DNA of 64,000 bases from a virus. Lineage: Duplodnaviria > Heunggongvirae > Uroviricota > Caudoviricetes. Position 1 is the stretch's first letter, and every line of letters begins with the position of its first letter. The position numbers and the translations under genes were made by a program. The notes under the pieces are model-generated. The model was not told the origin of the DNA. It saw only the letters and a list, made by a program, of their open reading frames with translations, and made no database searches. Below, piece after piece: positions 24,080 through 61,501 of the stretch. The stretch spans positions 290,948 through 354,947 of the IMG/VR virus record IMGVR_UViG_3300021979_000001; one strand, written 5' to 3'.

Positions 24080-25186
24080 TCAAAATAATTCAGAATACCG
24101 TAACTGCGCCATGATCATATCGCGTTCATTTTTGAAATACGCAGCTACTAATGTAGTCGGATGTGGGAGAAATATAGTGCGACTGCTATAATAATCCCCA
24201 TCTACTGTATGTCTAATAATATTAGGTGACAGCGTGTGAGTTACTCTGTTCATTAAATCCGAATAGATGAAGGCAGACACATGATCGAACTTAAACTTTT
24301 CTGTATATTTAAAAGTAGTAACAGCACCGTCGAGTTTGAAAATAGATGATGCTAATGCATCGTTGTCTCCTAATAAGTTATAATTAGTTTTAAAGACTTG
24401 GTAAAAATATTTATCATAATAATTAATATTGAAGTCAAGTTTATATGGAAATTTCTTAAATAATATTTCCTCGGTTATTAAACATTCGGTTAATACATTA
24501 CGAATATTTTCTTTATGTTCGCTATTTTCCATGTATAAATTATTGTCATATAAAACTATTATTGTTTTATTCTTTTTAGCATATGATTTTAAACCTTGAA
24601 TATAAGAATAGGCGCAGGATAATGTAACCGAATCGTTATCGTTTACCAGTGTAATGTATTCCGAACAATATTTCAATGCATGTGCTGGTTTACTATGGTG
24701 TGATGCTATATCCCTATACTGATGAAATCCATATAACCGTGATTTGGTAATATTGGAATGTTCTCTATCATTGCCATCATAGACCAGTTTTATACCATAT
24801 GGTAGAAATATATGGTTGGTTGATACATTTGTGTCTTGTTTAACCATAGACCACACACCATTGCCGGATACCGTGTCGATTTGGCTACAATACCATTGTA
24901 ATAAGGTTAAGTGATCAGATACCGTTAAATGAATTGGCGTATTCCCAGTGAATGGGAAGTTAGTTCCATGCATTTTAAGCAAAGCAATTTGATATGGGTA
25001 AAGTATATTATTAATGTTAGAGATAAAATTAAATTCATTTTCATTATATCCAAGAGAAATTTTTAGTTTGTTTGAAAGTTTTCTAAACATCCCTACTGAA
25101 ATTTTTTCCCCTACATAACTGGCTACGTAATATTCGTTACGCCCGTCATTATTAAAAACCATATGAAAAGTAGTGGTATCTGTCAT
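24080..25186 (-). CDS. expanded paralog family protein (unknown function)
   Basis: 368 aa; LKSYAKKNKTIIV..NNLYME; ends YFKNERDMIMAQL. Confidence 0.75.
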   Translation of the reverse strand: MTDTTTFHMVFNNDGRNEYYVASYVGEKISVGMFRKLSNKLKISLGYNENEFNFISNINNILYPYQIALLKMHGTNFPFTGNTPIHLTVSDHLTLLQWYCSQIDTVSGNGVWSMVKQDTNVSTNHIFLPYGIKLVYDGNDREHSNITKSRLYGFHQYRDIASHHSKPAHALKYCSEYITLVNDNDSVTLSCAYSYIQGLKSYAKKNKTIIVLYDNNLYMENSEHKENIRNVLTECLITEEILFKKFPYKLDFNINYYDKYFYQVFKTNYNLLGDNDALASSIFKLDGAVTTFKYTEKFKFDHVSAFIYSDLMNRVTHTLSPNIIRHTVDGDYYSSRTIFLPHPTTLVAAYFKNERDMIMAQLRYSELF

Positions 25187-25189
25187 TGA

Positions 25190-26176
25190 TTAATCTTCCA
25201 ACAAAAAATGAGAAAATTTCACATTAAACATCACGGAATCTTCAATGGTTTTAAATAACATATAACCATGTATATGAGAAATCTTAACAAAAATAATGTC
25301 GTGGTTGCTTAATTGCTTTATATTATCACTGTCAATCATTGAATAATATTCAACCAGGTGCAAGCTGGTATCATTGAGTGTAATACCGTTTACTATAATA
25401 TTATTATGTTCGATGATATGTTGTGTTATTTTAGCAAAACATGAAACCGACATATCTAATTTATAAGGATAACAACTAATCAAGTTGTTAATATGATTCG
25501 GGTCATTTTCCAGAATATTGACAATATTTTTTTTATGATAGTCGTTTTCTAAATATAGTCTATAACCAGTATCAATAATAAAGGTATGGTTGTTTAATAG
25601 ATAATTTTTAATATTAGTGTTGCTTCTAATCCCCAGGGTAGAAAGGCATGTGTCATTATTGACATAATGTAGATGTGCAGTAATATCATCACAGGTGATA
25701 AATTTATACGATGGGTTTAATACATCATAATAAATTGGGTGAGTAGTATGGGTATCCCAGCTAATATTTGATACAAAATCAACGTTATTTCCGCCGCCAT
25801 GTTCCGCAGTTGTATGAATATAAAGATCAGGTATAGTGCGACGGGCAATAGTCCGCATTATATCCATATTGTTAAAAAAATTTGATTTTGTAGACGGGTG
25901 GGTTCTACTCAATAATATATGATTTAAATCGGGTATCGTATATTGAGATGGTATATAAATACCCATATTATGCAAATATATTATATCTAATGGGTAAATT
26001 ATATTTGAAATATTAATGAGGCTATAATCAAACCTGGTATTAGGGGTTCTACCAATGGTTAATCCAACCCTATTTTGTTCGGAAACAACCGCGTCGATAA
26101 TTACGGTTGCTGGATAATTCGATTTGCATACCGTGTGAACTCCGAAATTGTTAACATGAAGTTCATATTCGGTCAT
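25190..26176 (-). CDS. expanded paralog family protein
   Basis: 328 aa; similar to neighbour 24080 (NI.NIIYP, LY.EN..HK.NI.N.L, PYKLD); ends LFKTIEDSVMF. Confidence 0.75.
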   Translation of the reverse strand: MTEYELHVNNFGVHTVCKSNYPATVIIDAVVSEQNRVGLTIGRTPNTRFDYSLINISNIIYPLDIIYLHNMGIYIPSQYTIPDLNHILLSRTHPSTKSNFFNNMDIMRTIARRTIPDLYIHTTAEHGGGNNVDFVSNISWDTHTTHPIYYDVLNPSYKFITCDDITAHLHYVNNDTCLSTLGIRSNTNIKNYLLNNHTFIIDTGYRLYLENDYHKKNIVNILENDPNHINNLISCYPYKLDMSVSCFAKITQHIIEHNNIIVNGITLNDTSLHLVEYYSMIDSDNIKQLSNHDIIFVKISHIHGYMLFKTIEDSVMFNVKFSHFLLED

Positions 26177-26252
26177 GCCTGTATCCTTTGGTATAGATAT
26201 TCAACATCAAAATCGGGTAGGCCAATTTAATGCCCACCCGTTTCCGATACCA

Positions 26253-27134
26253 TCATTTTTTATATTTTGCAATGATTCCCTGTAATTCGGTAATCATGTC
26301 GTCAACATCAACATTTTTAGCTACTGCCTGGCTGATCGTTCCATAATGGCTCTCGATGCATTCTAACAACAATGCTTTTATGTTTGCTTCATTCGGACGA
26401 TGCTGCAATGTAGATGTTTCATATAGTCTTGCTAAGTGTTTTTCTTTTTCGGTAAACCAGTCTTTAAGACGGGCCAGTTCCCATTCACCACGACGAATAC
26501 TCTTAAGAATTTCACGACCTTTTTCGATGTCCAGGTCATGTGTTTCAAGAATTTGTTCACATTCTTGCGCCAGACGAACAACATGATATGCAAACTTTAC
26601 ATCATATCCGTATTTCTCGATGCTTTCGGCTCGTTTCGGATTTGAGGAATTAGTTTTGTTTTCGATCTTTGACATCTGGGAATACGCATATCCACTGAAC
26701 TTGTGAAAGGCCCCTTTATGCAGAAACATCTTGCGGTTTTCCCGCAAACGTTCAGATATGGCCGTGCTATGCAGAACCGCACGTCGTGGGGTAAACAAGC
26801 TGTCAATCATATTGGGGTTATTGTCCATGCACAGTTGGAAATAACGCACAATGGAATATACCGAAAAGTCGTATGTTTTATTCTTGCCATTCGGGTCTTT
26901 GATGTGGTGTTGTTGCCATTGACCAAATGTGGGGGTTTGGGTGGCAAACCCCGGTATCTCCCCGGCTGTATGCGGGAACAAAATTGATTTGGGCGGCATG
27001 CAAAACCCATAAATATCGATGTCACTATTATCGTTGGAAACACCGTATGCCACTGATCCCATCATGGTGAGATATAATACGTTGTCATGCAACCAAGAGG
27101 GTGCATTACTGGAAGAAATTATGTTTAAAACCAT
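26253..27134 (-). CDS. DNA polymerase beta-superfamily nucleotidyltransferase (YcgL/RlaP-like)
   Basis: GSVAYG...SDIDIYG, NNPNMIDSLF, GYDVKFAYHVVRL, IRRGEW. Confidence 0.85.
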   Translation of the reverse strand: MVLNIISSSNAPSWLHDNVLYLTMMGSVAYGVSNDNSDIDIYGFCMPPKSILFPHTAGEIPGFATQTPTFGQWQQHHIKDPNGKNKTYDFSVYSIVRYFQLCMDNNPNMIDSLFTPRRAVLHSTAISERLRENRKMFLHKGAFHKFSGYAYSQMSKIENKTNSSNPKRAESIEKYGYDVKFAYHVVRLAQECEQILETHDLDIEKGREILKSIRRGEWELARLKDWFTEKEKHLARLYETSTLQHRPNEANIKALLLECIESHYGTISQAVAKNVDVDDMITELQGIIAKYKK

Positions 27135-27322
27135 TAGTAACCTCTGGTCTGAACAAGGGTTGATACCCCTGGTTGATTGGATATTGTTGCCATTGCCTTG
27201 CTGATTTTTTCATAATCAGCAGCAGAAACGGTGCCGAAATCCATTTCGAAATATGCTTTGCTGTTTGGTGCATTTTTTTCAAAATGATCGATAATTTTAC
27301 GCATGTCATCGTAAGAAATCAT
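27134..27322 (-). CDS. small hypothetical protein
   Basis: 62 aa; stop overlaps the nucleotidyltransferase start. Confidence 0.5.
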   Translation of the reverse strand: MISYDDMRKIIDHFEKNAPNSKAYFEMDFGTVSAADYEKISKAMATISNQPGVSTLVQTRGY

Positions 27323-27473
27323 GAGTTGGGTGCCTTATCCGTAAACTATTGTGATACGAAAATTATCATACACATGGAGGGAGTGCAATATTTTTGTTCC
27401 ATGGTGTCAATCACGTCTAATATTATTGTTTACACTGCACAAATTGCTGGTATATACTTGATCAAATGTATGG

Positions 27474-28265
27474 TTGATAGCGGGTAGATTGATCGCAATG
27501 GCAAGTAGTTTCAATGACAACATAATCCAACGTAGATTGCTGAAAAAATATTTTAGTGATTTTGGGATCACATTGAGTCGTGACAGACCACTCGATAACA
27601 TCATGATCAAAATGATTAGTGCGGTCTACGCTGATAAAATGAAAACATTTCCATTTGACGTTGATATATACGAAAGTAAAAATTATGATATGCAATCGGA
27701 TGACATCGATCTGTTGCTGAAATGGGTCCAGTCGGATGATTTGAGTTTGCCTAATGGTAAGGTGAAACTTAACGAAGTTTGTATGACAAACTGGGAATGT
27801 AATATTAAGTTATTTAATGCCACCGTTAATGATATACCAAGCATGGTTTATAATGCGGTGGTTAGTTCGGTATATTTTCACGTAAATTATTCGTTAACTC
27901 ATTATATTCAAAAATACGTTATTAATAATAATTTGAAGGCATTAGTAACAAATAGAATAGTATATTGTGATTCTAACAATGCACTTGATCATTTTTGTAT
28001 TAAAGCAAAAGAAACCCATATAATAATAGATGATGTTCCGCATTATACTATCATAATAAAAGATAGGTCGTTGCATAGTTCATATCAACTATATGAAATG
28101 TTATATGATGCAAATTTAACATTTATATCTGCAAATTATTTGGATAATATCGGGTATGAATGTTATGATTTTTTGTCAGATCGATATGATGTCTACATCG
28201 CCGGTGACAGATTATTTTGTAGAACAGAAACGAATGCAGTAATATGCAAACTCCTTTTTGGATAA
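27474..28265 (+). CDS. expanded paralog family protein (short)
   Basis: 263 aa; ends LFCRTETNAVICKLLFG. Confidence 0.65.
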   Translation: MIAGRLIAMASSFNDNIIQRRLLKKYFSDFGITLSRDRPLDNIMIKMISAVYADKMKTFPFDVDIYESKNYDMQSDDIDLLLKWVQSDDLSLPNGKVKLNEVCMTNWECNIKLFNATVNDIPSMVYNAVVSSVYFHVNYSLTHYIQKYVINNNLKALVTNRIVYCDSNNALDHFCIKAKETHIIIDDVPHYTIIIKDRSLHSSYQLYEMLYDANLTFISANYLDNIGYECYDFLSDRYDVYIAGDRLFCRTETNAVICKLLFG

Positions 28266-28277: not shown

Positions 28278-29285
28278 ATGGATATAATACACACCGAAAC
28301 AGTAGTCGATGGAAAACTTTTTAAAATAGACATACAAACTTATTCATCGAGTAAGAAGTATACGCGGGATATATTATCATTTGAAAAAATTGAGAGAACA
28401 TTATTTAATCAATATTACAAGAATAGTTTGTTATTTCATATATTTTATGAAAATGATCATACTTCATCGATTGTTTCTAACGATAACATAATATATCCTT
28501 GTATGATTAGTTTAAACAATCGACATCATATGTTTGACAATTCAACGTTTCCGCTTAAGTTTGATGATTTTCGTCCTGATATTGGGTATAAATTGTTACC
28601 AGAACATATCGCATATTTGCGAATATGGGCTGTGTTAAAAAATGATATGGATAATGATTGGCAATTTGTTGATCCATTACAAACCCCTATGGAACAGGTA
28701 ACAATAACCGAGTATGTTCCCGAATGTGGTTTGCTTAATATGTCCGATAATTATCGCCTGGCGGGCGACTGGTTTAATGATGAAGTTCTTAATTCTGTTA
28801 TCAAATTGCCGAATACATTAATAATGGGAAGTGCGATAAACGATGACAAAAACATATTTTTTATGGCAATTGATAAGTTTGCCAGGAAGAATAAAATTAA
28901 AATTATTCATCATGACCATCAATTTATTCTTAATAATAATAGCGAAAAAGATTTAATAACAATTATTACCAGACAGTGGAAATCAATAGAGAGAATAGAA
29001 AAGAAATTATCCAAACAATCATGGTGTTTTTCACGGAAAAATATTAAAATAAAGGATATAAAAGATAAGTTGAACGTTTTAAATGAGGTGAACATTAATT
29101 ATTATTATTTGGCATATGAATCGAATACATATGCACATATGATATTTGGTTATTATCCAGTAATATCTGAAAAGATTAAAAATGCTGATATTGTGTTGTT
29201 TGATAACGGGAACAGTGTTAACATTCGAATTCGCGATGCCGAAACGGCAGTAATGATAAAATTAACCATGCAGGAAATATTATGA
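28278..29285 (+). CDS. expanded paralog family protein
   Basis: 335 aa; IDKFARKNKIKII; ends IRDAETAVMIKL. Confidence 0.75.
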   Translation: MDIIHTETVVDGKLFKIDIQTYSSSKKYTRDILSFEKIERTLFNQYYKNSLLFHIFYENDHTSSIVSNDNIIYPCMISLNNRHHMFDNSTFPLKFDDFRPDIGYKLLPEHIAYLRIWAVLKNDMDNDWQFVDPLQTPMEQVTITEYVPECGLLNMSDNYRLAGDWFNDEVLNSVIKLPNTLIMGSAINDDKNIFFMAIDKFARKNKIKIIHHDHQFILNNNSEKDLITIITRQWKSIERIEKKLSKQSWCFSRKNIKIKDIKDKLNVLNEVNINYYYLAYESNTYAHMIFGYYPVISEKIKNADIVLFDNGNSVNIRIRDAETAVMIKLTMQEIL

Positions 29286-30247
29286 CCTATAACCCCAATG
29301 AATTTGTCTTTTTTTTAGATGATACGTATTTTTACGCCGTTATTGTTGATAAAAATGCTGTCATTCTACCACCAAGTATTGATGTGGATCAAAATATTAA
29401 AATGACGAAAGATCATGGTATCGCTGGTCTTCCTTATTATACTGAAAATGCTATATATTTTAAAGATACGGACTGCTACAATAAGAGTTTAATGACGCCG
29501 GTTAACATTATGCGGTTTAAAGCAGATTTTACACGCATACATGACTTTCCGATAAAGTTATTAGATGATGCTGGTGTCAGTTACGATGTATCAGAAGTAA
29601 CAAAAAATGCAATATTTATATGGGTATATCTGTATAATAAACTTACGGAAAATAACACAGTAAAAATATTTTATAAATCAGACGATGGGACAGGAGAAAC
29701 ATATAAACCGGTTATGTCCAGTTTAACCATGGTTAAACGCGATACTAAAATCAAAAATGGTCTATATGAGATTTTACGTTATAATCATTTTGCATTTACT
29801 ATGCCTTATACTAGATCATATGAAAAACGAGAGATATATAATAATTTGCCAGTAACACCGTATAAAATTAATATTACTGATTACTTAGCCGAACCAGTAG
29901 ATGCGCAAAAATCAACATTTGATTATGGACCTAAAAGTAAATTAATGACCGATCAAATGTTTCAGAGCATGGATGAATTTGCCAAGAAAAATGATACAAG
30001 CATTTTCATATATGAAACTGGTGATATTTATTTGGAAAAATCATTATTTTCTGATTTCAAAATGGATATACTTGACAAGTTGTGTGATGTTGAAGATTTA
30101 TCCAATAAAAAAACATGTTATGAAATAAAACATCAAGTAAACAAAACTAAAACTCTAACTAATAGTTTTCCGAAAAAGGTTTTTCTTATAAAGAATGGTA
30201 TCTTAAAAATGGCAAAGTTTGTTCAAGATATTTTCAGAAATATTTAA
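29282..30247 (+). CDS. expanded paralog family protein, frameshifted C-terminus
   Basis: MDEFAKKNDTSIFI..GDIYLE; family-like tail continues in another frame to ~30318. Confidence 0.7.
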   Translation: MTYNPNEFVFFLDDTYFYAVIVDKNAVILPPSIDVDQNIKMTKDHGIAGLPYYTENAIYFKDTDCYNKSLMTPVNIMRFKADFTRIHDFPIKLLDDAGVSYDVSEVTKNAIFIWVYLYNKLTENNTVKIFYKSDDGTGETYKPVMSSLTMVKRDTKIKNGLYEILRYNHFAFTMPYTRSYEKREIYNNLPVTPYKINITDYLAEPVDAQKSTFDYGPKSKLMTDQMFQSMDEFAKKNDTSIFIYETGDIYLEKSLFSDFKMDILDKLCDVEDLSNKKTCYEIKHQVNKTKTLTNSFPKKVFLIKNGILKMAKFVQDIFRNI

Positions 30248-30314: not shown

Positions 30315-31388
30315 TTGATGTTTGACATGGTAACAACAACGTTTCGAGTGTTGATGCAACCGATAAACAAAAAAATTTACGTTGATGTCAAACATACTAA
30401 TATTGATTTTCCGAAAAGTTTATATAATTATTTGAATCAAATAATAATTGATACAACAAAGTATGGAGATATTTTAAATGATGTAATGTATGATCGATAT
30501 GACGAATATTATACCTTAACTCCATTGAAAATTGCTGAATTTCGGCAGCACCCTGGAATACACAAATTTCCAATTGACATCACGAATGAACCAGATGCTT
30601 TTTCTGGTTCATTCAAATCGACTTATGGGTATGAAATATCTGTTAAACAAGCGGCAACTATTATTATATGGAATTTGTTTACCAAGCATATGAAACATTT
30701 TCATTTTGAGTTCATGGATCATACCGCAACTGCTATGAAACAAGTTCATTTTTTTAGACCTGAATGCACAACGAGGTGTTTCTGGGTTCGCAATAGTATG
30801 AAAGAAGCCGCAGGAAATTTTTATTATCCTAAAAATGCGGTCAAAATAAATGCCCAAGATTACGGATGTAATGTATCATTCCGTAATTTCAATGTTTTAG
30901 GTGCTAATAATATAACATTAAACCAGTCGAATGATGTCAGTGATGAACTTAATCAACTATGTGTTGATTTAAATACCCAGATCGTCATAGCAGATGGGTA
31001 TATTCACATGGAAAAGAAATATAAACGGAAAATAATGAACTTAATCAATAATAAATGGATTAAAATTAATGATTTGATAAAACATAATATTCATAACGTC
31101 AATATCAAAGTAACGTATGAAAAATACGATGACGTGTTATCCAAATATGAGGATGTATGGAATGATGGCGATATTGTCAACACACAATTAATACATATTG
31201 ATTATTTAAGTTCACAGAACAAACTAAATCGCATTAATGTGGATTTCATCAAAGCCGTCTTACGTCAGGATAATGATGTGTTGATTTTGGTATACACAAC
31301 ATATTACAATCACAGTTGGAGAAAAAATATTCATTTGTTTTCAAAGAATGAATCCATAATTACTCTTTTAAAAATGAGGCTATTATGA
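30315..31388 (+). CDS. expanded paralog family protein
   Basis: 357 aa; close paralog of 31385; ends LFSKNESIITLLKM. Confidence 0.8.
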   Translation: MMFDMVTTTFRVLMQPINKKIYVDVKHTNIDFPKSLYNYLNQIIIDTTKYGDILNDVMYDRYDEYYTLTPLKIAEFRQHPGIHKFPIDITNEPDAFSGSFKSTYGYEISVKQAATIIIWNLFTKHMKHFHFEFMDHTATAMKQVHFFRPECTTRCFWVRNSMKEAAGNFYYPKNAVKINAQDYGCNVSFRNFNVLGANNITLNQSNDVSDELNQLCVDLNTQIVIADGYIHMEKKYKRKIMNLINNKWIKINDLIKHNIHNVNIKVTYEKYDDVLSKYEDVWNDGDIVNTQLIHIDYLSSQNKLNRINVDFIKAVLRQDNDVLILVYTTYYNHSWRKNIHLFSKNESIITLLKMRLL

Positions 31389-32452
31389 CTAACATGATCG
31401 AATCCCGTATTTTGGTGTCTCTTGATTGTGGTTGGGAACAATATGTCAATGTAAAACATGAACCAATGCAGTTCGATGATGCTTGTTATGATCATTATGG
31501 TCGTTTATCCATTCATTATCTAATTTATGACGAAATCCTGTTGGGGGTTAAATATGACCATTTCGGGGAATGTTATAAAATAACCCCGTATGACGCCATT
31601 AATTTAAAATTGCATCGTGGTAAGTTTCCGTTTCAAATCGATATGGAAACCGATACTTGTCATTACGGTTATAGTATAAGTTGTAACCAGGCCGCAATTA
31701 TTATGGTATGGGATATGTTTGTTCGATATTATAGTGATATTGAATTTCATATAGTCCATGATGTAACGGAACCAATTCGCAGTCACAAATATGTCAAACC
31801 AACCACCATCCCAGGTTGCTATTGGGTTAATAATCATTTTGGCAAGATTGATGGTGGTTTTCATTATCCAAAAAATCCGACCATCATAAACGGGTCAGAT
31901 TATGGATGTTCTATAACATTCGGTATTTGGGAACAAGATGGCCGAAACAATATAACACTTAATAAAAAAAACGAAATCCACGGCCAATTAAATGACCTGG
32001 CGATTAAATTGAATACGCCAATTACCATCATTGATCAAAATATTCACGTGGAAACACAACATTATGAAACAATATTGAATTTCATTAACACTATTTGGAT
32101 TGAATTAAAATCCTTGGAACAATATAATATCCATACTTTTGCAGTCACATTATCATATGAGGGATATATCGATCTTTCAGAAGAAATAGTTAAAATAAAT
32201 GCAGATGCGGACATTAGTTGTGTTCAGATGACCAATATTATACAAATGAGTAGTGAGTATAACAATAATAGTAATATTAACCGTGATATACTACATCGTG
32301 TTAATAAACATTATATTGATTCTAAGCTGGTAAATGACACTGATTTTTTAATAATATATGGAACAGTGTATTCAGACGCGGTTCACAAACGTGTTTACTT
32401 TTTTTCTAAAAGTGAAGAAGTTATTACATTACTTAAATTGAGGGTATTATGA
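31385..32452 (+). CDS. expanded paralog family protein
   Basis: 355 aa; YGY.IS..QAA.I..W, F.YPKN...IN..DYGC, G.NNITLN shared with 30315; ends FFSKSEEVITLLKL. Confidence 0.8.
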   Translation: MTNMIESRILVSLDCGWEQYVNVKHEPMQFDDACYDHYGRLSIHYLIYDEILLGVKYDHFGECYKITPYDAINLKLHRGKFPFQIDMETDTCHYGYSISCNQAAIIMVWDMFVRYYSDIEFHIVHDVTEPIRSHKYVKPTTIPGCYWVNNHFGKIDGGFHYPKNPTIINGSDYGCSITFGIWEQDGRNNITLNKKNEIHGQLNDLAIKLNTPITIIDQNIHVETQHYETILNFINTIWIELKSLEQYNIHTFAVTLSYEGYIDLSEEIVKINADADISCVQMTNIIQMSSEYNNNSNINRDILHRVNKHYIDSKLVNDTDFLIIYGTVYSDAVHKRVYFFSKSEEVITLLKLRVL

Positions 32453-33519
32453 AACGAACGTTTACATTTATCGTAGATCACAAAAAGTTTATGGTATGTG
32501 TATGTTTTAATACTGATACTCTTATTTTAAATTCGGTAATGATAACTAATCCAGATGATCAGTTTAAAATCGAAATTGACAATGATTGTGATTATAATTT
32601 AGTTACCAATAATAAAATCACACCATATAATATATTATACCGGGAAACAACTTATAATTATCTGCCAGATTTCCCGGTTGAAATACATGATACTATTAAT
32701 ACTATATACGAACTTTCTGAATTAAATGTATGTTGTATATCAATTTGGTCGTATTTACATTATTATCTTGAAACGGATAAAGTGAAATCGATTGAGATAT
32801 ACCAAAATGTAAATGGCACAAACATCCCAATTAATAAAAAACCAGTTTCATATATAACATATGAAAACAAAAATGATTATGGGTTCTATAATATCAATCC
32901 TACCGACAGCGTTGAGGCAATTAAACTCTGTGGCATGTTTCCATCTAATTTACGCATTTTAGATATAATTATGTATATAGACATGGAAATTGAACATGTC
33001 GCGAATGGTAATGATTCAACCGCGTTTCCCACATGGTTCCTTGCCGAAAATTATACCCATGCATTCACCAAGATTTTAGATGATTTTGCCAAGGAAAATA
33101 ACACATTCATTGTGATGCTGTGTGATGCGAAATTATATTGTGATATAAATTTATTTACGGATATTACCCAACTGTTTTTGGATAATTTTAGTGAGCCAGA
33201 AGATATTGCATCTGATTACAATAAATCAAAGAAAAAATCAGATAAAATACTATATCAATTGACATTAGAAAAATCTTATACAAACACTGATGACGTGATT
33301 AATAAACTGGCAGAACTTGGATACCAGTATGAATCCCGTTATATAGAAGATTTTGATATATATCACGCGGGAATATTACCAGCCTTAAAAACAGTTGATG
33401 TTTATGTGATTTCCTTATTAACGCCTACATTATCATCGTCATTACCAGTAGTGCGAAATATCACAATGTTAACGCACGATAGTGAGTTATACACGATGCT
33501 AAAATTAATATATGGGTGA
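32449..33519 (+). CDS. expanded paralog family protein
   Basis: 356 aa; LDDFAKENNTFIV; ends YTMLKLIYG. Confidence 0.75.
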   Translation: MKRTFTFIVDHKKFMVCVCFNTDTLILNSVMITNPDDQFKIEIDNDCDYNLVTNNKITPYNILYRETTYNYLPDFPVEIHDTINTIYELSELNVCCISIWSYLHYYLETDKVKSIEIYQNVNGTNIPINKKPVSYITYENKNDYGFYNINPTDSVEAIKLCGMFPSNLRILDIIMYIDMEIEHVANGNDSTAFPTWFLAENYTHAFTKILDDFAKENNTFIVMLCDAKLYCDINLFTDITQLFLDNFSEPEDIASDYNKSKKKSDKILYQLTLEKSYTNTDDVINKLAELGYQYESRYIEDFDIYHAGILPALKTVDVYVISLLTPTLSSSLPVVRNITMLTHDSELYTMLKLIYG

Positions 33520-33576: not shown

Positions 33577-34569
33577 ATGCCGAAATATCAGTTTTCATTT
33601 AAAAGTGACAACGATGAAATCAAAATAAAGTTATGGTCTAAACAAAATATAGCTAATTACAACAACGATGTGACTAATAAAATATTACCTATAATTAATG
33701 ACATAGAAAACCAATTTGGTATTAGAGTATACTCGTCAAATAATATGATCTATAGTGGGGTAATATCATGTAATGTTATGACGTCGGAAATCACATCAGG
33801 TGTATTACGAATTATAGAATATTATTTTGGGAATGATTTCTGGCCGAAGAAATTAAAAGATAATCCTAATATTTCACATACCCTCACTTTTTATCAAAGC
33901 GTCGAACTTCTTTTTGGTATTATTAACAAATATACTAATGATTATTATAAATTTAAAATACTCAATAAAAAAGAAATTTTAACCGAAAAATATAACTCAA
34001 GTTTTTTACAATCATATCCTACTATTACAATAGAAAATAATAACTTAATACATTATTATTCTGGTCTGCATTTTACTAATCCAGTGCCGTGTTTGAAAAA
34101 TTATACCTTGGTTAATATCCATAGAATATTCACAAACACGTCAAATATATTATTGAGACAAGTGTCACAACAATATAAACAATACTTCTATGATAATGTA
34201 TTAAACTTTGCTAATGATAAAAATACTGAAATATATTGGTTCTGTGATCATATTTTTGTGAAAAATGAATTTGTTGATGATTTTTTGAACATGATTAATA
34301 CCTATTGGGTAACCGAGATTCCTGAACCATGGGTATTTAGTTTTTCAATCACGGGGGAGTCTGCTATTGAAATTAATGAGTATTGCCAAATTATAGAGGA
34401 CTCTGAATTGAAATGCGAAATGATATATAGCTACCTTAGAAGCAATTATTATTATATAGGTAATATACCATCGGATGCAGATGTTCTAATATACAAATGC
34501 ACAAACAGCGTTTATTTTTTTGTAAAAGATGCAGCTACCTGGACATATCTTAAATTGATGGAACGCTGA
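33577..34569 (+). CDS. expanded paralog family protein (EYxFG subgroup)
   Basis: 330 aa; IIEYYFGND; FAND.NTEI...INTYW; ends FFVKDAATWTYLKL. Confidence 0.75.
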   Translation: MPKYQFSFKSDNDEIKIKLWSKQNIANYNNDVTNKILPIINDIENQFGIRVYSSNNMIYSGVISCNVMTSEITSGVLRIIEYYFGNDFWPKKLKDNPNISHTLTFYQSVELLFGIINKYTNDYYKFKILNKKEILTEKYNSSFLQSYPTITIENNNLIHYYSGLHFTNPVPCLKNYTLVNIHRIFTNTSNILLRQVSQQYKQYFYDNVLNFANDKNTEIYWFCDHIFVKNEFVDDFLNMINTYWVTEIPEPWVFSFSITGESAIEINEYCQIIEDSELKCEMIYSYLRSNYYYIGNIPSDADVLIYKCTNSVYFFVKDAATWTYLKLMER

Positions 34570-34653
34570 ATTTAAATCAACGATAAAAATTATGGTTGAC
34601 TGTTTTATGTAATAGTGTATTATTAATCATAACCTTTTACATGGATATGTCAC

Positions 34654-35006: not shown

Positions 35007-36125
35007 ATGACACGCGGTATAATTCGGTATGGCAGTTATAATATAGTAATGTCGGTGAGGTTTACACCGGATCGTTCGGCAGAACCAATAATTGATACCG
35101 AACAATACCTTATCAAACTTTTTTATAATGCCAGTGTCGAGTATTCCCGAAAATCGGGAATTGACTTTTTGTGCAGTAGCATTAATGCTGGGCAGTCAAC
35201 TGTTGCCCAAAACATGCATTTTTCAACCCGATTATGGTCGCCCACACGTTTTAGGATACTCGAATATTTTTTTGGGGTGAATGTAATTCCGCAGCATGTG
35301 CGAGAAATATCATTTAACTGCGTGCATCTGTGCATGGAAGATCAATTCACTATCTTCGTGAATGTTTTCAACGCGATGACCAATCATGTCTATAATGTCA
35401 TTCCGAACTTCCATAAATACCAATATGGATCACATGAATCACACACAACATCAATGTTCGAACATCAGATCGATAATAAGCCAGGTCTGGTTAGGTGTGT
35501 TGAACTTTCAAAACAGTTTCCGCATATAAAAACGTTATTGGGAATGGCATCAATCAATATTATTGACACATCCACATATGGTTGCATGCCATTACAAACA
35601 ACATTCATAGCATATGATTTTAAATCAAAAAATGTCGTTAATAAATGCAACGATTTAAATTCACGGCATTTACACTCGCGTGATTATGGAATGATTGATG
35701 TTGACAAACAACATGATTTCTATGCTGTTTTGGACAAATATGCAAAATCCCGACAAACACAAATTTTTCTTATTGATTACAATTTGTTTGTTGACCCTGC
35801 TTATGTTGATGAAATAAATGAAATTATCTCAAAACATTGGGGAAAATTGTTTGTGGATAATGATCAATGGGTGTCATTTTGTTGGAAATCACCATCAGAC
35901 GACGATCTGACTAAACTTTGTAATACGCTTGCCGATAATGGAAATAATATTTATGTGATTCTATCAATGCTGCATAAAAAAGGTTATCGGGATAATCAAT
36001 TAAATCTCGATAAGTATGATTTCGTTGTTGTAATTGAATCTAGTGTATCGAATAGTGTAAATACAGATGCGATAATTTATGCCAAAGACGAAATAAATTT
36101 GAGCCTCGCTAAATTATGTTGTTAA
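35007..36125 (+). CDS. expanded paralog family protein (EYFFG subgroup)
   Basis: 372 aa; WSP...LEYFFG.NVIP; ends IYAKDEINLSLAKL. Confidence 0.8.
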   Translation: MTRGIIRYGSYNIVMSVRFTPDRSAEPIIDTEQYLIKLFYNASVEYSRKSGIDFLCSSINAGQSTVAQNMHFSTRLWSPTRFRILEYFFGVNVIPQHVREISFNCVHLCMEDQFTIFVNVFNAMTNHVYNVIPNFHKYQYGSHESHTTSMFEHQIDNKPGLVRCVELSKQFPHIKTLLGMASINIIDTSTYGCMPLQTTFIAYDFKSKNVVNKCNDLNSRHLHSRDYGMIDVDKQHDFYAVLDKYAKSRQTQIFLIDYNLFVDPAYVDEINEIISKHWGKLFVDNDQWVSFCWKSPSDDDLTKLCNTLADNGNNIYVILSMLHKKGYRDNQLNLDKYDFVVVIESSVSNSVNTDAIIYAKDEINLSLAKLCC

Positions 36126-37281: not shown

Positions 37282-37319
37282 ACAAAATAGCCCCAATATT
37301 TAAATTGGGGCTATTTTGT
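37282..37319. terminator. bidirectional intrinsic terminator
   Basis: ACAAAATAGCCCCAAT-loop-ATTGGGGCTATTTTGT between convergent genes. Confidence 0.8.
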
Positions 37320-38445: not shown

Positions 38446-38576
38446 AAAAAATCCATAAGTAAAAATATAGATATATTTATCATAATCCAGTATTTTTTTT
38501 CATTTACAAAACAATGGTATATGATATTATATGCTTATGTATTTTCTGAAATCGCAATTTTTTGGATGAAACCATA

Positions 38577-41901: not shown

Positions 41902-41966
41902 CTAAGCATACACCGAGATCGAAACGTTTTCTACCGACATTGATGCCAGCAAAGGAAGAAAGTATT

Positions 41967-42937: not shown

Positions 42938-43079
42938 AATCAGCGCGTGTAGACCCTTCTGGTTGATCCTTCGTAACCCAACCTAATATGGGTTACATGC
43001 GCTGTGTGCCCTAAAAATATGCCCTGGCGTTGATGTTATTATAATAAATAAGAATACAGTAACATTGAACGCGATAAAC

Positions 43080-47239: not shown

Positions 47240-47324
47240 TGGTAAATTTCTCCAAAGCATTGATTATTTATACCAATTTAGTGAATAAATACAAAAATAA
47301 CGTTGTTATTTGAGAGCGAGAACC

Positions 47325-50178: not shown

Positions 50179-50180
50179 AA

Positions 50181-50246: not shown

Positions 50247-51350
50247 TTAATCAATTATTGATTTGATTGCATAGCCATGGCTATTGCCACCAGAAGCCGC
50301 AGACCAGTCAGTATCCGTTCCGATTTGGGTCCAGGATGATCTGTTACTATTACCATAACTACCTATTTGACCATCACCACCATAACCAATACCCCAAATG
50401 GTCCCATCCGACTTAATTGCATAGCCATGATTGCCGCCACTTGCAACAGATACCCAATTAGTATTTGTCCCGATTTTTGTCCACGATGACTTATTTCCAG
50501 AACCACCTATTTGACCATAAATATTATAACCAATCCCCCAAATGGTCCCATCCGACTTTATTGCATAGCCATGATATGTTCCACCAGAAGCCAATACCCA
50601 ATCTGTATCGGTTCCGATCTGTGTCCACGATGACTTATTCCCAGAACCACCTATTTGACCAAAATTATTGTAACCAATCCCCCAAATAGTGCCATCAGAC
50701 CTAATTGCATAACCATGAATGTTACCACTCGAAACAGATACCCAATTAGTATTCGTCCCGATTTTCGTCCAAAATGACTTATCACCCGAACCACCTATCT
50801 GCCCAACATTATTAGAACCAATTCCCCAAATAGTGCCATCAGACCTAATTGCATAACCATGACTATAACCACCCGAAACTGATGCCCAATTCTTATTCGT
50901 GCCAATTCGGGACCAGTATGATCTTCTACCAGTAAATCCAAGCTGACCAGAACCGCTATCACCAATACCCCAAATGGTCCCATCCGACCTAATTGCATAC
51001 CCATGATTGCCACCGGCAGAAACCGATGTCCAATCATTATCGGTTTCAATTTGTGTCCACGATGACTTATTCCCAGAACCGCCTATTTGACCATAATTAT
51101 TGTAACCAATGCCCCAAATAGTGCCATCCGGTTTAATTGCATAACCATTATTATTAGAACCACCGGAAATAGATGACCAATCATTATCAGTTCCTATTTG
51201 AGACCACAGTGTCTTATTCCCAGTCCCACCGATTTGACCATAATCATTAGAACCAATACCAAATACCGGGTGTTTTATTGTTTCAAAATTATTTTTTCCA
51301 ATGGTAATATTTAAAAAATGTTTCAGATTGTTTTTTACAACTACGCCCAT
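50247..51350 (-). CDS. RCC1-repeat beta-propeller protein
   Basis: about seven ~48-aa repeats W.SVSGG..HGYAI.SDGTIWGIG.N.YGQIG. Confidence 0.9.
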   Translation of the reverse strand: MGVVVKNNLKHFLNITIGKNNFETIKHPVFGIGSNDYGQIGGTGNKTLWSQIGTDNDWSSISGGSNNNGYAIKPDGTIWGIGYNNYGQIGGSGNKSSWTQIETDNDWTSVSAGGNHGYAIRSDGTIWGIGDSGSGQLGFTGRRSYWSRIGTNKNWASVSGGYSHGYAIRSDGTIWGIGSNNVGQIGGSGDKSFWTKIGTNTNWVSVSSGNIHGYAIRSDGTIWGIGYNNFGQIGGSGNKSSWTQIGTDTDWVLASGGTYHGYAIKSDGTIWGIGYNIYGQIGGSGNKSSWTKIGTNTNWVSVASGGNHGYAIKSDGTIWGIGYGGDGQIGSYGNSNRSSWTQIGTDTDWSAASGGNSHGYAIKSIID

Positions 51351-51382
51351 AATAGTTCTATACCCAATACAAATGTTTGGTT

Positions 51383-52486
51383 CTATTTATCACTTATTAT
51401 TTTTCTAATCCCATAGCCATAATTATTGCCACCGGAAACATATAACCAATCATTATCGGTTCCGATTTGCGTCCAGACTGATTTATTTCCAGTTCCACCT
51501 ATTTGATTATAGTAATTATTACCAATGCCCCAAACGGTTCCCTCGGATTTAATTGCATACCCATGATTACTACCACTCGAAACCGATAACCAATCATTGT
51601 TGGCTCCGATTTGCGTCCAGACTGATTTATTTCCAGTTCCACCTATTTGTTTAGCAGCATTATACCCAATACCCCAAATAGTCCCATCAGATTTAATTGC
51701 ATAACCATGATTGTAACCACTTGATACCGACACCCAATCTGTATCGGTTCCGATTTTTGTCCAGGATGATTTATCCCCAGTCCCACCTAGTTGACCATAA
51801 TTATTGTAACCAATTCCCCAAATGGTTCCGTCTGACTTAACTGCATAGCCGTGCATATACCCGCTTGAAACAGATACCCAGGTATCAACTGTTCCAATTT
51901 CTGTCCATGACGATTTATTGCCGGAACTACCTATCTGACCATAATAATTGTAACCTATGCCCCATATTGTCCCATTGGTTTTGATTGCATAACCATGAGC
52001 ATAACCACCCGAAACCGATACCCAATCGGCATCTGTCCCGATTTTTGTCCAGGATGATTTGTCACCAGAACCGCCTATCTGACCAAAAGTATTGTAACCA
52101 ATTCCCCAAATAGTGCCATCAGACTTAATTGCATACCCATGATTGCCACCGGCAGAAACCGATGTCCAATCATTATCGGTTCCAATTTTGGTCCAGGATG
52201 ATTTGTCACCAGAACCGCCCATTTGCCCATATCTATCAGAACCAACACCCCATATGGTCCCATCGGACTTGATTGCATAGCCATAGTTGCTACCGGCAGA
52301 AACTATTAACCAATCATTATCTGATCCAATTCGGGTCCAGGATGAAACATTATAATCGGCATAACCGATCTGACCGGAATCATTAAAACCAATGCCGTAT
52401 ATAGGATACCGTATCGTTTCAAAATTACTTTTTCTAATGGTAAGATTTAAAAAATGTTTCAGATTGTTTTTTATAACTGCGCCCAT
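51383..52486 (-). CDS. RCC1-repeat beta-propeller protein (tandem duplicate)
   Basis: same repeat and length (367 aa); duplicated upstream region with ATAAATA at 52520-52526(-). Confidence 0.9.
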   Translation of the reverse strand: MGAVIKNNLKHFLNLTIRKSNFETIRYPIYGIGFNDSGQIGYADYNVSSWTRIGSDNDWLIVSAGSNYGYAIKSDGTIWGVGSDRYGQMGGSGDKSSWTKIGTDNDWTSVSAGGNHGYAIKSDGTIWGIGYNTFGQIGGSGDKSSWTKIGTDADWVSVSGGYAHGYAIKTNGTIWGIGYNYYGQIGSSGNKSSWTEIGTVDTWVSVSSGYMHGYAVKSDGTIWGIGYNNYGQLGGTGDKSSWTKIGTDTDWVSVSSGYNHGYAIKSDGTIWGIGYNAAKQIGGTGNKSVWTQIGANNDWLSVSSGSNHGYAIKSEGTVWGIGNNYYNQIGGTGNKSVWTQIGTDNDWLYVSGGNNYGYGIRKIISDK

Positions 52487-56158: not shown

Positions 56159-56644
56159 TTATTTTTCGGTAATTCCAAATGAGTTAAACGCATATTCGAT
56201 TTTATTTGCACCTGGGCGGTTGATGTTCAACAGAACCGTTTCGCCCAAACAATACATACCATCATGTAGCGTGAACCGCATCGGATAAATCATACCATCG
56301 ACGACGATTGGCCCAAAATTAATTTCATGTTCAGCCGGAACGATGACGGTTGACTGAATTAATTTGGTGCGGGTCTGTTTTCGTTTTTTGATGTAACTGG
56401 TTGATGGAAGTGAAAAAGTTAAACCGCTTTTTATCTGGCGTTTATTCCAAGTCTCAACGGCATCACGATCCGGGGAGTGTGAACCCAACGACGTAGTTCC
56501 ACCCCGTGTCCAATGGAACAGCATAAAACCCATACCTTCGCACCCGCATTCGCATGCAACGCGATAATGTGATATATTATTTTCTGCCCGAAAGGTGAGT
56601 GCTGGTTCGCCACCACACATCGGGCAAGAATTTAAACTTACCAT
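56159..56644 (-). CDS. Lar-like (restriction alleviation) zinc-ribbon protein
   Basis: LNSCPMCGGEP...VACECG...AVETWNKR. Confidence 0.7.
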   Translation of the reverse strand: MVSLNSCPMCGGEPALTFRAENNISHYRVACECGCEGMGFMLFHWTRGGTTSLGSHSPDRDAVETWNKRQIKSGLTFSLPSTSYIKKRKQTRTKLIQSTVIVPAEHEINFGPIVVDGMIYPMRFTLHDGMYCLGETVLLNINRPGANKIEYAFNSFGITEK

Positions 56645-57148: not shown

Positions 57149-57733
57149 TTATCGTAACTGTTGTCTACTGTTTTTTTTCAGCCCTGGCTTAATCCAATGC
57201 AGTTCTGGATGTTCACCGGTAAAGTTTTTATCCCATACTATCCACACATAGGTGGTTGTCCCACCACCTTTAACTTGACTACCGGCTGGATACAAAGACA
57301 ACCGTTCAGAAAACAGATAAACTCGCGATGGTGGTATTACTGAATAAACAGTATTATACCGCGTGATGCTTTCCAAAAATGATGCCCTAACCAAAATACA
57401 AACTTTTTGAGTAGCCAATTGAATCGCATGTGTCAAAATATCATTTGCAATGTTATATGGCGGATTTGTTATAATATTATCGTATGGTGCATTTATGTCG
57501 AAAAAATCGACAACATCACCGTAACCCCAATCATTTATATCCGATGATATTACTTTACAATTAGTTTCTTTCAAAACTTTGGACATATCGCCCGTTCCGC
57601 AACACGGTTCGAGGATAGTTCCGGTAAAATTTTCGTTTTGAAGTAATGCCAATGTTCCCCATCTTGGGGTGGGATAAAAATCTGGCCCGGACGCATCAAC
57701 CAGGCGTTTGTTCGTTATCATACAAATACTCAT
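57149..57733 (-). CDS. phage N6-adenine DNA methyltransferase-like protein
   Basis: DFYPTP, ILEPCCGTG (motif I), IITNPPY (motif IV), Y.W.VW. Confidence 0.88.
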   Translation of the reverse strand: MSICMITNKRLVDASGPDFYPTPRWGTLALLQNENFTGTILEPCCGTGDMSKVLKETNCKVISSDINDWGYGDVVDFFDINAPYDNIITNPPYNIANDILTHAIQLATQKVCILVRASFLESITRYNTVYSVIPPSRVYLFSERLSLYPAGSQVKGGGTTTYVWIVWDKNFTGEHPELHWIKPGLKKNSRQQLR

Positions 57734-58515: not shown

Positions 58516-59661
58516 TTAATTATTTGCCAACTTTAATTTTGCAAGAACCATTTGCGCATGGTCACGAAAAAGCAGAACTACCTTTTGTATATTATGATTA
58601 TTATGTTTAATGGATGAACATAGTATAATCATATCTACTTTTTTTAATTCATATGGAAAGGTTGGTTTTCGACAAAACGTCGTATATTGTCGAGCATAAA
58701 TACCAAATTTCGATGAAATTATTTTAAAATCAAAATCGAACAGGTCTGTTATATAGTCGCGAGTTTTATCGGCAAGGATTGGTGTGATCATTATTGGAAC
58801 ATTAATGTTATGTCCTATGCTATTGCCAAATCGTTCATAATTAATAAATGGCGACATATCTACATCGTAACCAAAATCGGTGTCGCACCGGTATGGAAAA
58901 TCATTATTAACTTCATCCAACGATGCTATGGGCAGCAATTCACGCTTTAATATATCGTATACATGCTGATGCTGACAAAAAAGTTTGCCTTCTGTAAATA
59001 CCACACGTTCATTCTGTATTCCATATTCTTGCATAATTGCACGAATATGGGCCTTCCCGGTGATCATGCTGTATCGGGCATCAAAAACAGGAATATTTAA
59101 GAAACCATAAAAATCCGATAAATCGGAAACGCGCATAAATTCAGGGTTATGGCGATCAATACAAATAAGCCCAGGTGTGTTTTTCAAATCCTTAACATCA
59201 TTGTCCCGAGGGAAACAATCATAGTTTAAGAACTTGGTGTTATAAACCTTGATGCCAGACGGAATAACGTTTGGATCATTAATAAAAGCCCATTGAACGT
59301 TGTCATCTGACTGGGAACAATACCACATCAGAAATGAAATAATAGAATTGTTACTATCATTAAATGGTATATTATAAAATTCGGTATCTTTAATGTTGGT
59401 ATGCATAGATAGCATATCAACTATAAAGGAAACATTTCTTGTCGAATATTTAGATTGAATTTCAATTTTGGTTTTTTCCCGCGTTTTGACATACAGATCG
59501 TTAATATCAGGATGATTACAAGCAATATGGATTACACCACATAAAGTTGGGTCCATCTGCCCATGATCGGAAAAATGATAAATGAATGGCAACTGACTAC
59601 GAACAGTATCGTAAGCATGATATTTGACTGGGTAAGGATGTTTTCGATTGTTGAACATCAA
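58516..59661 (-). CDS. expanded paralog family protein (TNIK.T.F/F.MW subgroup)
   Basis: 381 aa; TNIKDTEF, FLMWYCSQ, RVSDLSDFY; ends LLFRDHAQMVLAKL. Confidence 0.8.
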   Translation of the reverse strand: MMFNNRKHPYPVKYHAYDTVRSQLPFIYHFSDHGQMDPTLCGVIHIACNHPDINDLYVKTREKTKIEIQSKYSTRNVSFIVDMLSMHTNIKDTEFYNIPFNDSNNSIISFLMWYCSQSDDNVQWAFINDPNVIPSGIKVYNTKFLNYDCFPRDNDVKDLKNTPGLICIDRHNPEFMRVSDLSDFYGFLNIPVFDARYSMITGKAHIRAIMQEYGIQNERVVFTEGKLFCQHQHVYDILKRELLPIASLDEVNNDFPYRCDTDFGYDVDMSPFINYERFGNSIGHNINVPIMITPILADKTRDYITDLFDFDFKIISSKFGIYARQYTTFCRKPTFPYELKKVDMIILCSSIKHNNHNIQKVVLLFRDHAQMVLAKLKLANN

Positions 59662-59798
59662 TTCATATCCACGATATTTATATGCTGTTTAAAGGCCATT
59701 TAACGCATCATAGAGGCGGTCTAAGTTAACAGGCAGCGTTACCCCAAATTATTATTAACGGCTAATACCTGGCCGCAAAACACCCCCTACGCTGAACA

Positions 59799-60935
59799 TT
59801 AATCTGAATTAAAATCAACATGTAGTTTAGCAAGGACCAGTTGAGATTCATCTTTAAACAATAAATAACGCATCCCTGCCTTAATTAAATACATTTCGAT
59901 CATGTCCACCGATTGTAATTGGTGTAAAAACACCGGTTTTTTATAAAATACGGTTAGACCTCGTGATATTGGATCATCAATAGGAATAAATAGTGTGTTC
60001 AACCCAAGATTATTTTGCAAAAGCGAGTGATATTTAATGTCTCCCGATTCAAGCAAATATGGACTGGGTGCCAACTTCCCAAACGTTGCAAACGTTTCAC
60101 TTTGTGAAATCGCAATGATTTCTGGATAGTCATACTGATTATAGTTAGTCCGATATTTGATATGATATGGAAATAGTGCCGATACATCGTCTACTGAACT
60201 TATCGGTGTTAGTGTTTTCTTGAAAAAATCATAAACATGCTTTTTTTCACAGTATAATTCTAATCCTGTAAATACAAGACGTTCGTTGATCATATCATTG
60301 TCACGCAGAAATTTTGCAATCATGTGTGCCGCAGTTGACAGATTGTCTTCGGCATCAATCCAGGGCAGGGAAATGCTATTATAAAATTCCGACAAATCCG
60401 ACACCCGCTTGCGAGGGTTATGTTTTGGATCAATAACGACGAACCCAGGAGTATCGGCATAATCTTGAATGTCATTATTATGCTTATATTCGGAATCGGA
60501 ATAAAATAAAAAATAAGATATGTCAATCTTACCAGTGATATTATCGTCAATATTATCCGGGTATTTGTTACATATATACCACTGTAGGTTATCAAATGAT
60601 TGTGCGCATAGCCACATCATAAATGGAATACAATTGTCAGTTGCGATACCATTTAATGAATCACCGTGAAATACGGTCTGTTTTATATTCGTCGTTAGTG
60701 ATAATACATCTTTGTTAAACATATGGAAATGGAACGATGTTGATTGGATTTCAACCTTTGTTTTTATCTTTGACTGCACATACAGGTTATGTAGGTTATG
60801 GTGATTGCACACTATATACACGGTTTCGATCATAGAATTACCGTAAACTTTGTATATATACTTGGATAATGCGGAATCATCATACGGGCTGTAAATAGCC
60901 GGGTATGGCGTTGTCTTGTTATTATATTTGATCAT
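59799..60935 (-). CDS. expanded paralog family protein
   Basis: 378 aa; close paralog of 58516; ends LLFKDESQLVLAKL. Confidence 0.8.
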   Translation of the reverse strand: MIKYNNKTTPYPAIYSPYDDSALSKYIYKVYGNSMIETVYIVCNHHNLHNLYVQSKIKTKVEIQSTSFHFHMFNKDVLSLTTNIKQTVFHGDSLNGIATDNCIPFMMWLCAQSFDNLQWYICNKYPDNIDDNITGKIDISYFLFYSDSEYKHNNDIQDYADTPGFVVIDPKHNPRKRVSDLSEFYNSISLPWIDAEDNLSTAAHMIAKFLRDNDMINERLVFTGLELYCEKKHVYDFFKKTLTPISSVDDVSALFPYHIKYRTNYNQYDYPEIIAISQSETFATFGKLAPSPYLLESGDIKYHSLLQNNLGLNTLFIPIDDPISRGLTVFYKKPVFLHQLQSVDMIEMYLIKAGMRYLLFKDESQLVLAKLHVDFNSD

Positions 60936-61501
60936 TACTGCAACCCTGACATTATCAATTTAAACATTACTCGTGTTTCGTCCGTTTTAAAATAGAACGT
61001 GTTTGTCATCGTGTGGGTTGGATATTTCAAAACACAATCGATATTACCGATCATTTTTTTTGGTATAAAAAATCGTTCATTGTTGGTAAACGGCAATATC
61101 GATATGTTGTTCAACGCTTTAAGAGCCTTAAACAAAAAATTATCCACTGGTTTGGTAGTGGTGTATAATAAATTGTAAGGATTATCCTTTGGTAAAACCC
61201 AATCGTCCTGGATAATTTCGTTAACCAAATGGGCATATTTCTTATCAACAAAACCATGTGCCCCGTCGGCATATATCTTAATGCGGTGTTCACGTGCTAA
61301 CTTGTTGAGTTTTGCTGTTGTGATATTTATGTTAGCCGAAAAATCCAGAAACAGTTTATCAAACATCCGGTTATACGATTTAAGCATATATGGAAACGAA
61401 ATATATTGCATATCCTGTTTTATTGCATCGTCGTTAAAGTGTTGATCATTATTAGCATATTGCATACTACTGCCAAATAATTTCAGTTCGCCCGATTGCA
61501 T
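60935..61501 (-). CDS. expanded paralog family protein (C-terminal half only)
   Basis: LNKLAREHRIKI...FVD...IIQDDW; ends FYFKTDETRVMFKL. Confidence 0.7.
   Translation of the reverse strand: MQSGELKLFGSSMQYANNDQHFNDDAIKQDMQYISFPYMLKSYNRMFDKLFLDFSANINITTAKLNKLAREHRIKIYADGAHGFVDKKYAHLVNEIIQDDWVLPKDNPYNLLYTTTKPVDNFLFKALKALNNISILPFTNNERFFIPKKMIGNIDCVLKYPTHTMTNTFYFKTDETRVMFKLIMSGLQ

Follow-up and report, generated by a model that had tools for sequence, protein, structure and literature searches.

A single protein family takes up much of one region of a megaphage genome, IMG/VR record IMGVR_UViG_3300021979_000001 (457,165 bp, rated complete; GC 38%), which we class as T4-like because it carries a gp23-type major capsid gene. 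We analysed a window of 64,000 nucleotides (nt), positions 290,948–354,947 of this record; positions below are those of the window unless called genome positions (window coordinate + 290,947 = genome position). Between 24080 and 61501 lie 18 full-length copies of the family, another that is split within the linker (41940/42476) and a decayed remnant of the C-terminal part (60935). Their summed length of 20,448 bp makes up 32% of the window and 4.5% of the genome, in line with an initial annotation of the same DNA that had seen about 20 paralogs filling about a third of the window. Every open reading frame (ORF) it listed is present, and most encode 320–380 amino acids (aa), the exceptions being 27498 (255 aa), the split pair and 60935 (188 aa). 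With ATG starts, the other 17 full-length members range from 321 to 380 aa. The capsid gene lies ~70 kb before the window, placing the family genes outside the structural module.

Copies and subgroups

BLASTP alone sorted the copies into five clusters and two singletons, and we worked with eight subgroups: A (33577, 35007, 36152, 43487, 44609), A2 (30318, 31385), B (38577, 39701, 58516, 59799), C (24080, 25190), D (29282, 32449), E (40762 and the split copy), F (28278) and G (27498). On the minus strand at the left end are the two C copies, 24080–25186 (368 aa; 3.6e-5 with C left out of the profile, 4.5e-64 with the all-member profile) and its BLASTP partner 25190–26176 (328 aa; profile 8.6e-50), the latter downstream of a gene for an RlaP-type nucleotidyltransferase. 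The plus-strand array then begins with 27498–28265 (G, 255 aa; motifs visible in the alignments, profile 2.9e-27 when included) and 28278–29285 (F, 335 aa; recovered over its full length at 1.9e-7 when left out). It continues with 29282–30247 (D, 321 aa), whose terminal motif is degenerate and which pairs with 32449 by BLASTP (9e-11), 30318–31388 (A2, 356 aa; profile 1.4e-75), 31385–32452 (A2, 355 aa; 35% identical to 30318, 1.2e-6 with A2 left out), 32449–33519 (D, 356 aa; 2.2e-5 over its full length with D left out) and 33577–34569 (A, 330 aa; 6.4e-4 over its full length with A left out). Two further A copies follow, 35007–36125 (372 aa; a profile member) and 36152–37270 (372 aa), the copy used for the AlphaFold2 model.

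Another plus-strand run starts with the B copies 38577–39692 (371 aa), whose tail is matched by the small-protein profile described below, and 39701–40738 (345 aa; 3e-8 via its N domain with B left out). Next are 40762–41781 (E, 339 aa), with the shortest linker (~20 aa), and the split copy. The N-domain half of the latter (41940–42479, +, 179 aa) is 50% identical to the N part of 40762 and, untrained, scores 9e-7; the C-domain half (42476–42937, +, 153 aa), also untrained, scores 1e-7 to 2.5e-10, and it is the top match of the small-protein profile (2e-4). The last plus-strand copies are 43487–44557 (A, 356 aa) and 44609–45685 (A, 358 aa; a profile member), 46% identical, with ribosome-binding site and start conserved at the DNA level. 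On the minus strand, 58516–59658 (B, 380 aa), a profile member, lies behind a T4-late-like TATAAATA, and 59799–60935 (B, 378 aa) is 33% identical to it. The remnant, 60935–61588 (−), has a 188-aa ORF at 60935–61501 holding the C module only (1.6e-7, untrained). A six-frame match at 60950–61588 covers model positions 128–349 with one TAA inside, and since homology continues upstream through this stop, we take 60935 to be decaying.

Membership was examined by leaving out one subgroup at a time, building a profile from the remaining subgroups and searching it against the 1,567 genome ORFs of at least 60 aa. Seven of the eight subgroups were recovered (A 6e-6, A2 1e-6, B 3e-8, C 4e-5, D 2e-5, E 1e-7, F 2e-7), several in alignments that run nearly full length, and the three ORFs never used in training (41940, 42476, 60935) scored 1e-6 to 1e-7 with the full profile. 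Comparisons of subgroup against subgroup with hhalign were weak, yet they aligned the same internal motif every time; the internal and terminal motifs that the annotation had noted across subgroups are both in register in the subgroup alignments. Subgroup G was not recovered among the 1,567 ORFs by the profile built without it. It is thus the weakest member, its membership resting on the visible motifs and the all-member profile. ORF 27173–27487 was considered as a missing N-terminal piece of 27474, the position at which the 27498 ORF opens, and rejected: its translation is hydrophobic and of low complexity, and the profile does not match it.

In the whole genome, no ORF beyond 24080–61501 was significant with the family profile. 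Together with the recovery tests, this shows that the family is real and confined to that interval. Of the shorter relatives that had been suggested, 2924, 8835, 9320 and 62959 dropped out: none matched any profile (E > 0.1), and they have at most a similar-looking strand–helix ending.

Domain architecture and fold

The proteins are built in three parts. An N domain of ~130 aa is followed by a linker of 20–107 aa, predicted to be disordered and differing among copies in both length and sequence, and then by an alpha/beta C domain of ~135 aa. The N part carries P-x-x-I-x-x-L...F-P and a helix with a conserved Trp. The C part carries, in order, [YF]-A-x-x-N, I-h-h-h, L-[YF]-h-[ED] and I...I...W, along with a D-h-h-I strand, and ends in a strand and a K-[DN]-E...h-h-x-K-L helix. 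An AlphaFold2 model of 36152 (mean predicted local distance difference test, pLDDT, 71; predicted template modelling score, pTM, 0.68) shows the N domain at 1–135, a low-confidence or disordered stretch at 137–240 and the C domain at 241–372, with pLDDT about 80–94 in the latter; the N domain modelled alone gave pLDDT 79 and pTM 0.77. A copy cut exactly in the linker (41940/42476) and a remnant with the C half only (60935) agree with two separable domains, as the annotation had proposed. The stop/start junction of the split copy (41940–42937), TTGA, lies within the linker; this copy may have become a pseudogene through a frameshift, or may still work as two chains.

There were no invariant columns in the alignment of 18 sequences and no conserved catalytic residues, in keeping with the earlier remark that a catalytic signature was lacking. 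The proteins have a near-neutral isoelectric point and no shared Cys/His pattern, and neither a signal peptide nor a membrane segment was found in any of them. Foldseek searches of the full model against PDB and BFVD, and of the N-domain model against PDB, gave best E values of 0.27 (PDB) and 0.08 (BFVD). The best BFVD matches were small uncharacterised phage proteins, and all scores fell in the range of common arrangements. Matches to ferredoxin-like, secretin-N1, ACT and palm-type domains (PDB 5v0s, 5w68, 1uso and others) were within the noise of the tool, the arrangement being very common, and these domains share neither sequence similarity nor functional residues with the family. ESM Atlas gave leads to M16-type peptidase lobes (0.89 and 0.76), below the tool's reliable level. 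We did not adopt peptidase M16/M44 as a relative: HxxEH occurs in one of 21 copies at a non-conserved site, and Pfam gives no match at E <= 1. The M16 lobe is not among the listed fold matches.

Divergence, age and selection

The nearest paralog of a copy is usually the adjacent gene, which points to tandem duplication. The best pairs have 46–50% amino-acid identity, and DNA-level repeats (71–84%) were seen within two pairs only. By the Nei–Gojobori method, the proportion of synonymous differences (pS) was 0.63–0.76, which is saturated, and the proportion of nonsynonymous differences (pN) was 0.34–0.48, with pN < pS in every pair tested. Saturated synonymous sites and a maximum identity of 46–50% indicate that the duplications are old. 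A gene accordion, part of the initial proposal, therefore fits poorly; poxvirus gene accordions are recent, near-identical amplifications, and we rejected an accordion of that type on the same figures. All 18 frames, of 255–380 codons, are open in DNA of 28–37% GC, against 38% for the genome's ORFs. Judged from these comparisons, the family is old and apparently maintained by selection.

Across all pairs, N domains shared 15% identity, linkers 12.5% and C domains 17%, making the linker the most variable element. In close pairs the N domain was as conserved as the C domain or more so (N versus C identity 57/44%, 37/25%, 29/17% and 38/34%). The N domain is also homologous across subgroups, sharing P..I..L....FP and the Trp helix. 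These results do not bear out the earlier picture of a conserved C-terminal docking module joined to diversifying N-terminal specificity domains.

Distribution

We found no homolog of the family outside this genome. An exhaustive hmmsearch of the family profile against 1.84e9 representative proteins (1.84 billion; E <= 0.001) returned the 18 training proteins only, each of them a singleton cluster, and a word-indexed search of 5.8e9 proteins returned the query itself only. Searches of Pfam, PHROGs and PADLOC with ten members each gave no match, agreeing with the annotation's view of one greatly expanded, uncharacterised family; known anti-phage defence and anti-defence families were accordingly rejected as relatives. 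There was likewise no match in a profile search of PDB sequences (E <= 10), in a tblastn search with one member of 50,697 INPHARED phage records, or in a search of metagenome contigs with one member. The literature yielded no description of the family or of its tail motif.

The absence extends to close relatives. IMG/VR holds many, with capsid proteins 66–81% identical and complete genomes of 385–608 kb among them. A six-frame search with the family profile of 12 related phage records (E <= 1), seven of them complete megaphages, gave no match; in five of those seven the capsid protein is 66–80% identical. As a positive control, the same search of the family's own genome gave 23 matches, including untrained fragments. 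Two explanations fit: sequence change in the family may be too rapid for it to be recognised in relatives, or the family may have arisen or arrived after this lineage branched off. As far as sequence searches reach, the family is lineage-restricted, with no homolog in any database or related genome searched. Relatives with an 80% identical capsid protein and no family member imply that a whole protein family was born, or turned over, very fast.

The C-terminal ending and small tail proteins

The ending, of ~23 residues, consists of a hydrophobic strand, an acidic turn and an amphipathic helix reaching the C-terminus. A profile of the family's last ~25 columns matched many other ORFs of the genome, nearly always a few residues from their C-termini. 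At least ten small proteins share the family ending, and ten scattered ones (68–137 aa) form a family of their own, with a W-x-x-N-N helix, a strand and then a terminal F-x-F-x-x-E-x-D-A-x-x-F-x-L-x-W-G. Their genome positions are 25620–25886, 131024–131320, 139867–140073, 149231–149587, 167075–167488, 202530–202775, 213217–213456, 218358–218633, 232507–232833 and 382583–382891; none of the ten had a convincing Pfam or PHROGs match. A profile made from the small proteins only placed five large-family ORFs (42476 at 2e-4, 39635, 40762, 24080 and 38562) among its six best non-seed ORFs, each matched at the C-terminus. Over 23 columns, hhalign aligned the two families with a probability of 87–91% (P 9e-7 to 4e-6); the reversed control reached 0.1%. 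By eye the upstream helices, Y-A-x-x-N in the large family and W-x-x-N-N in the small domain, resemble each other, but the hhalign comparison of this part gave P 0.33.

The family proteins (255–380 aa) go beyond the small tail proteins in having a larger C domain preceded by a long linker and an N domain. Distribution also sets the two apart: the small-protein profile had 5–12 matches in each of four related megaphages of 450–610 kb, where the large family was not found. In the model of 36152 the tail forms an internal strand and helix of the C domain (pLDDT 86–94), and its conserved positions are mostly hydrophobic. On this model, we tend to see the tail as part of a fold that goes back to a common small domain, and not as an exposed tag.

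Other ORFs resemble the set more loosely. About 95 kb before the window, at genome positions 193925–197061 (−), three adjacent ORFs of 260–336 aa have the same tail motif. They were rejected as family members, the tail alone matching (hhalign P 1.7e-4, 38 columns), and may be a further, more distant branch of large proteins. ORF 63507–63977, another of the suggested shorter relatives, has at most a similar-looking strand–helix ending. It and genome positions 355059–355655, part of a neighbouring array of six paralogs, gave weak matches to the small tail-domain profile (E 0.028 and 0.36), and may belong to the same broad tail-bearing set.

Gene layout and expression signals

The genes stand in tandem and are often translationally coupled, as first described, with 4-nt overlaps at 29282, 31385, 32449 and 42476, a 1-nt overlap at 60935 and gaps of 8–70 nt elsewhere. 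Matches to sigma-70-like promoters occur at 27429–27458 (+), at the head of the plus-strand array, where the match is to the consensus only, and at further array heads (34596–34623, 38503–38530 and one upstream of 41940). The reported lack of the late motif holds for the other copies and fails for 58516, which has TATAAATA directly upstream at 59675–59682 (−). The number of such boxes in the window is not above chance, making this one a lead only; a second, at 47265–47272 (−), precedes 46541–47260. A terminator-like hairpin with a 16-bp stem (37282–37319, −) lies between 36152 and the convergent gene 37333, and another of 20 pairs (61612–61658, −) separates a non-coding RNA operon from the minus-strand family array.

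Genomic setting

The family sits in an accessory region. The RlaP-type nucleotidyltransferase gene (26253–27134, −; Pfam 1.7e-18) is the first gene of the minus-strand operon that includes 25190 and 24080. Homologs 48–61% identical occur in 31 IMG/VR loci with entirely different neighbours: among the 31 loci compared there were no shared neighbours and no family members, which suggests that the RlaP gene moves on its own. An ART-PolyVal ADP-ribosyltransferase gene lies at 19166–20257 (+), and shorter paralogs of it at 43065–43421 (+) and 45764–46282 (−), with 24–32% identity, are interleaved with the arrays. Unassigned genes at 37333 and 47310 interrupt or flank the arrays; the sole match of the former (37333–38445) is phrog_11974, of unknown function.

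Nearby, a Lar-like restriction-alleviation protein (56159–56644, −) adjoins a 194-aa ORF (57149–57733, −) that covers just positions 200–389 of a 458-position DNA methyltransferase family, and is therefore likely to be a truncated methyltransferase gene. Two tandem 367-aa paralogs at 50247–52486 (−), a BLASTP pair, show RCC1-like Gly-rich repeats in their translations. Other accessory neighbours are a glutathionylspermidine synthase, a radical-SAM/SPASM enzyme and a tryptophanyl-tRNA synthetase. When we traced synteny in the nearest relatives through the tryptophanyl-tRNA synthetase and radical-SAM genes, the region was not conserved.

Function of the family

Judged by their sequences, the copies look like non-enzymatic binding proteins. 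Our leading reading, which we hold tentatively, is that the phage makes them early in infection as a panel of stoichiometric binders, each tuned chiefly through linker and surfaces to its own host or defence target. The tight polycistronic arrays, with mostly sigma-70-like rather than late promoters, would probably be transcribed early or in the middle of infection. The conserved hydrophobic cores of both domains would hold a common scaffold. Because linker and surfaces differ among copies, the host or defence protein that is bound would differ from copy to copy, or else the copies would bind variants of one target found in different host strains. Such a panel would serve host takeover or counter-defence; its accessory context includes RlaP, the ART-PolyVal paralogs, the Lar-like protein and the methyltransferase fragment.

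Several points weigh against a binder panel. Neither domain can be singled out as the one for "specificity", since the N domain evolves no faster than the C domain. The structure models rest on the alignment of 18 sequences and leave the linker unmodelled. The consensus promoter matches are slightly above those in shuffled sequence (149 found against 125 ± 9), and one copy, 58516, stands behind a late-like box. Some of the missing homologs may exist but have diverged too far to be detected, in which case the family would be less restricted than it seems.

The C-terminal module, or its terminal strand and helix, might alternatively be a docking handle for one shared partner, the rest of each protein bringing a different cargo or target and the small tail proteins belonging to the same system. 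The ending is the best-conserved element and stands at the extreme C-terminus both in the family and in the small proteins; the small-protein profile also has matches in the four related megaphages, and ORFs consisting of the C half alone exist (42476, 60935). We nevertheless consider a handle unlikely: a mostly hydrophobic ending that forms an internal strand and helix in the model is what a fold core would give, and the N domain, homologous in all subgroups, is no more diverged than the C domain.

The copies might act as inhibitors, chaperones or target-selecting subunits cognate to the interspersed ART-PolyVal-type and RlaP enzymes, in the manner of the immunity-gene arrays of polymorphic toxins, but this is quite unlikely. 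RlaP does head the operon that runs into 25190 and 24080, ART-PolyVal paralogs or fragments lie at 19166, 43065 and 45764, and the unassigned genes 37333 and 47310 interrupt or flank the arrays. However, ~20 copies face a handful of enzymes with no one-to-one pairing, no family member lies near the RlaP homolog at any of 31 other phage loci, and the relatives carrying such enzymes all lack the family.

A broader scenario, in our view just as doubtful, starts from the small tail proteins. The family would have grown from the clade-wide small FKLxW-tail domain by gaining a second domain and a variable linker, and would be recently born or hyper-evolving. Together with the small proteins it would amount to a repertoire of more than 30. 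One phage or host machine would read the ending that all of them share, and the variable parts would capture different defence or takeover targets. If this were true, the family and the small tail proteins would be a phage-encoded binder library, analogous to an immune-evasion repertoire.

The expansion might be largely neutral or selfish, with fast-evolving, dispensable genes duplicating and decaying in a plastic region without collective function. One split and one decayed copy, the lower GC of the intact copies and the absence of the family from all sampled relatives are in its favour. We think it improbable, given 18 long frames open in AT-rich DNA despite saturated synonymous divergence, pN below pS in every pair, and domain cores conserved in all subgroups.

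Paralogous virion protein families are known in giant phages. The ejection proteins of SPN3US are one example (PMC5694885). The family proteins might similarly be packaged and ejected, or decorate the particle, like the inner-body or ejection paralogs of giant phages, and the box upstream of 58516 would fit. This is very improbable: the other copies lack the box, the N-termini are not conserved and form no shared leader, and the genes lie in an accessory region far from the capsid gene. Capsid-targeted packaged proteins of the T4 IP/Alt type were rejected for the same want of late boxes and of an N-terminal targeting leader. Equally improbable are enzymes with an unrecognised active site, such as a nucleotidyltransferase of palm-like or ferredoxin-like type or an M16-like clamshell that is inactive or atypical.

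Comparison with known systems and implications

Tandem paralogs of ~350 aa are familiar from the multigene families of large eukaryotic DNA viruses, which lie in variable regions of the genome and are thought to counter host defences. The megaphage family is like these in having tandem arrays of ~350-aa paralogs in a variable genome region. It is unlike them, and unlike poxvirus accordions, in that there is no sequence or fold relation, its copies are at most 50% identical and their synonymous sites are saturated. Closer to hand, Bacillus phage G has a zinc ribbon in ~35 copies, a lineage-specific jumbo-phage expansion (Iyer et al. 2021, PMC7824862). Both are single families that grew to tens of diverged copies within one giant-phage lineage, with a function presumed to be binding or regulatory. 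The two differ in fold and size, and zinc ribbons are ubiquitous, whereas the megaphage family has no detectable homolog outside one genome. It is thus a new family within the known phenomenon of lineage-specific expansion in jumbo phages, and stands out by its lack of a detected homolog and its link to small tail proteins.

Most of the virosphere's unexplained protein diversity lies in giant phages, whose arms races are most clearly signposted by large lineage-specific expansions. Here, out of about 15 billion proteins, one genome alone carries the ~20 copies, all of them open and apparently under selection, and this large family is linked to small tail-motif proteins that recur in the phage clade. 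The family is a defined set of proteins for screens of binders and targets. Should its copies prove to neutralise different host defences, it would supply new anti-defence proteins as well as a new two-domain fold.

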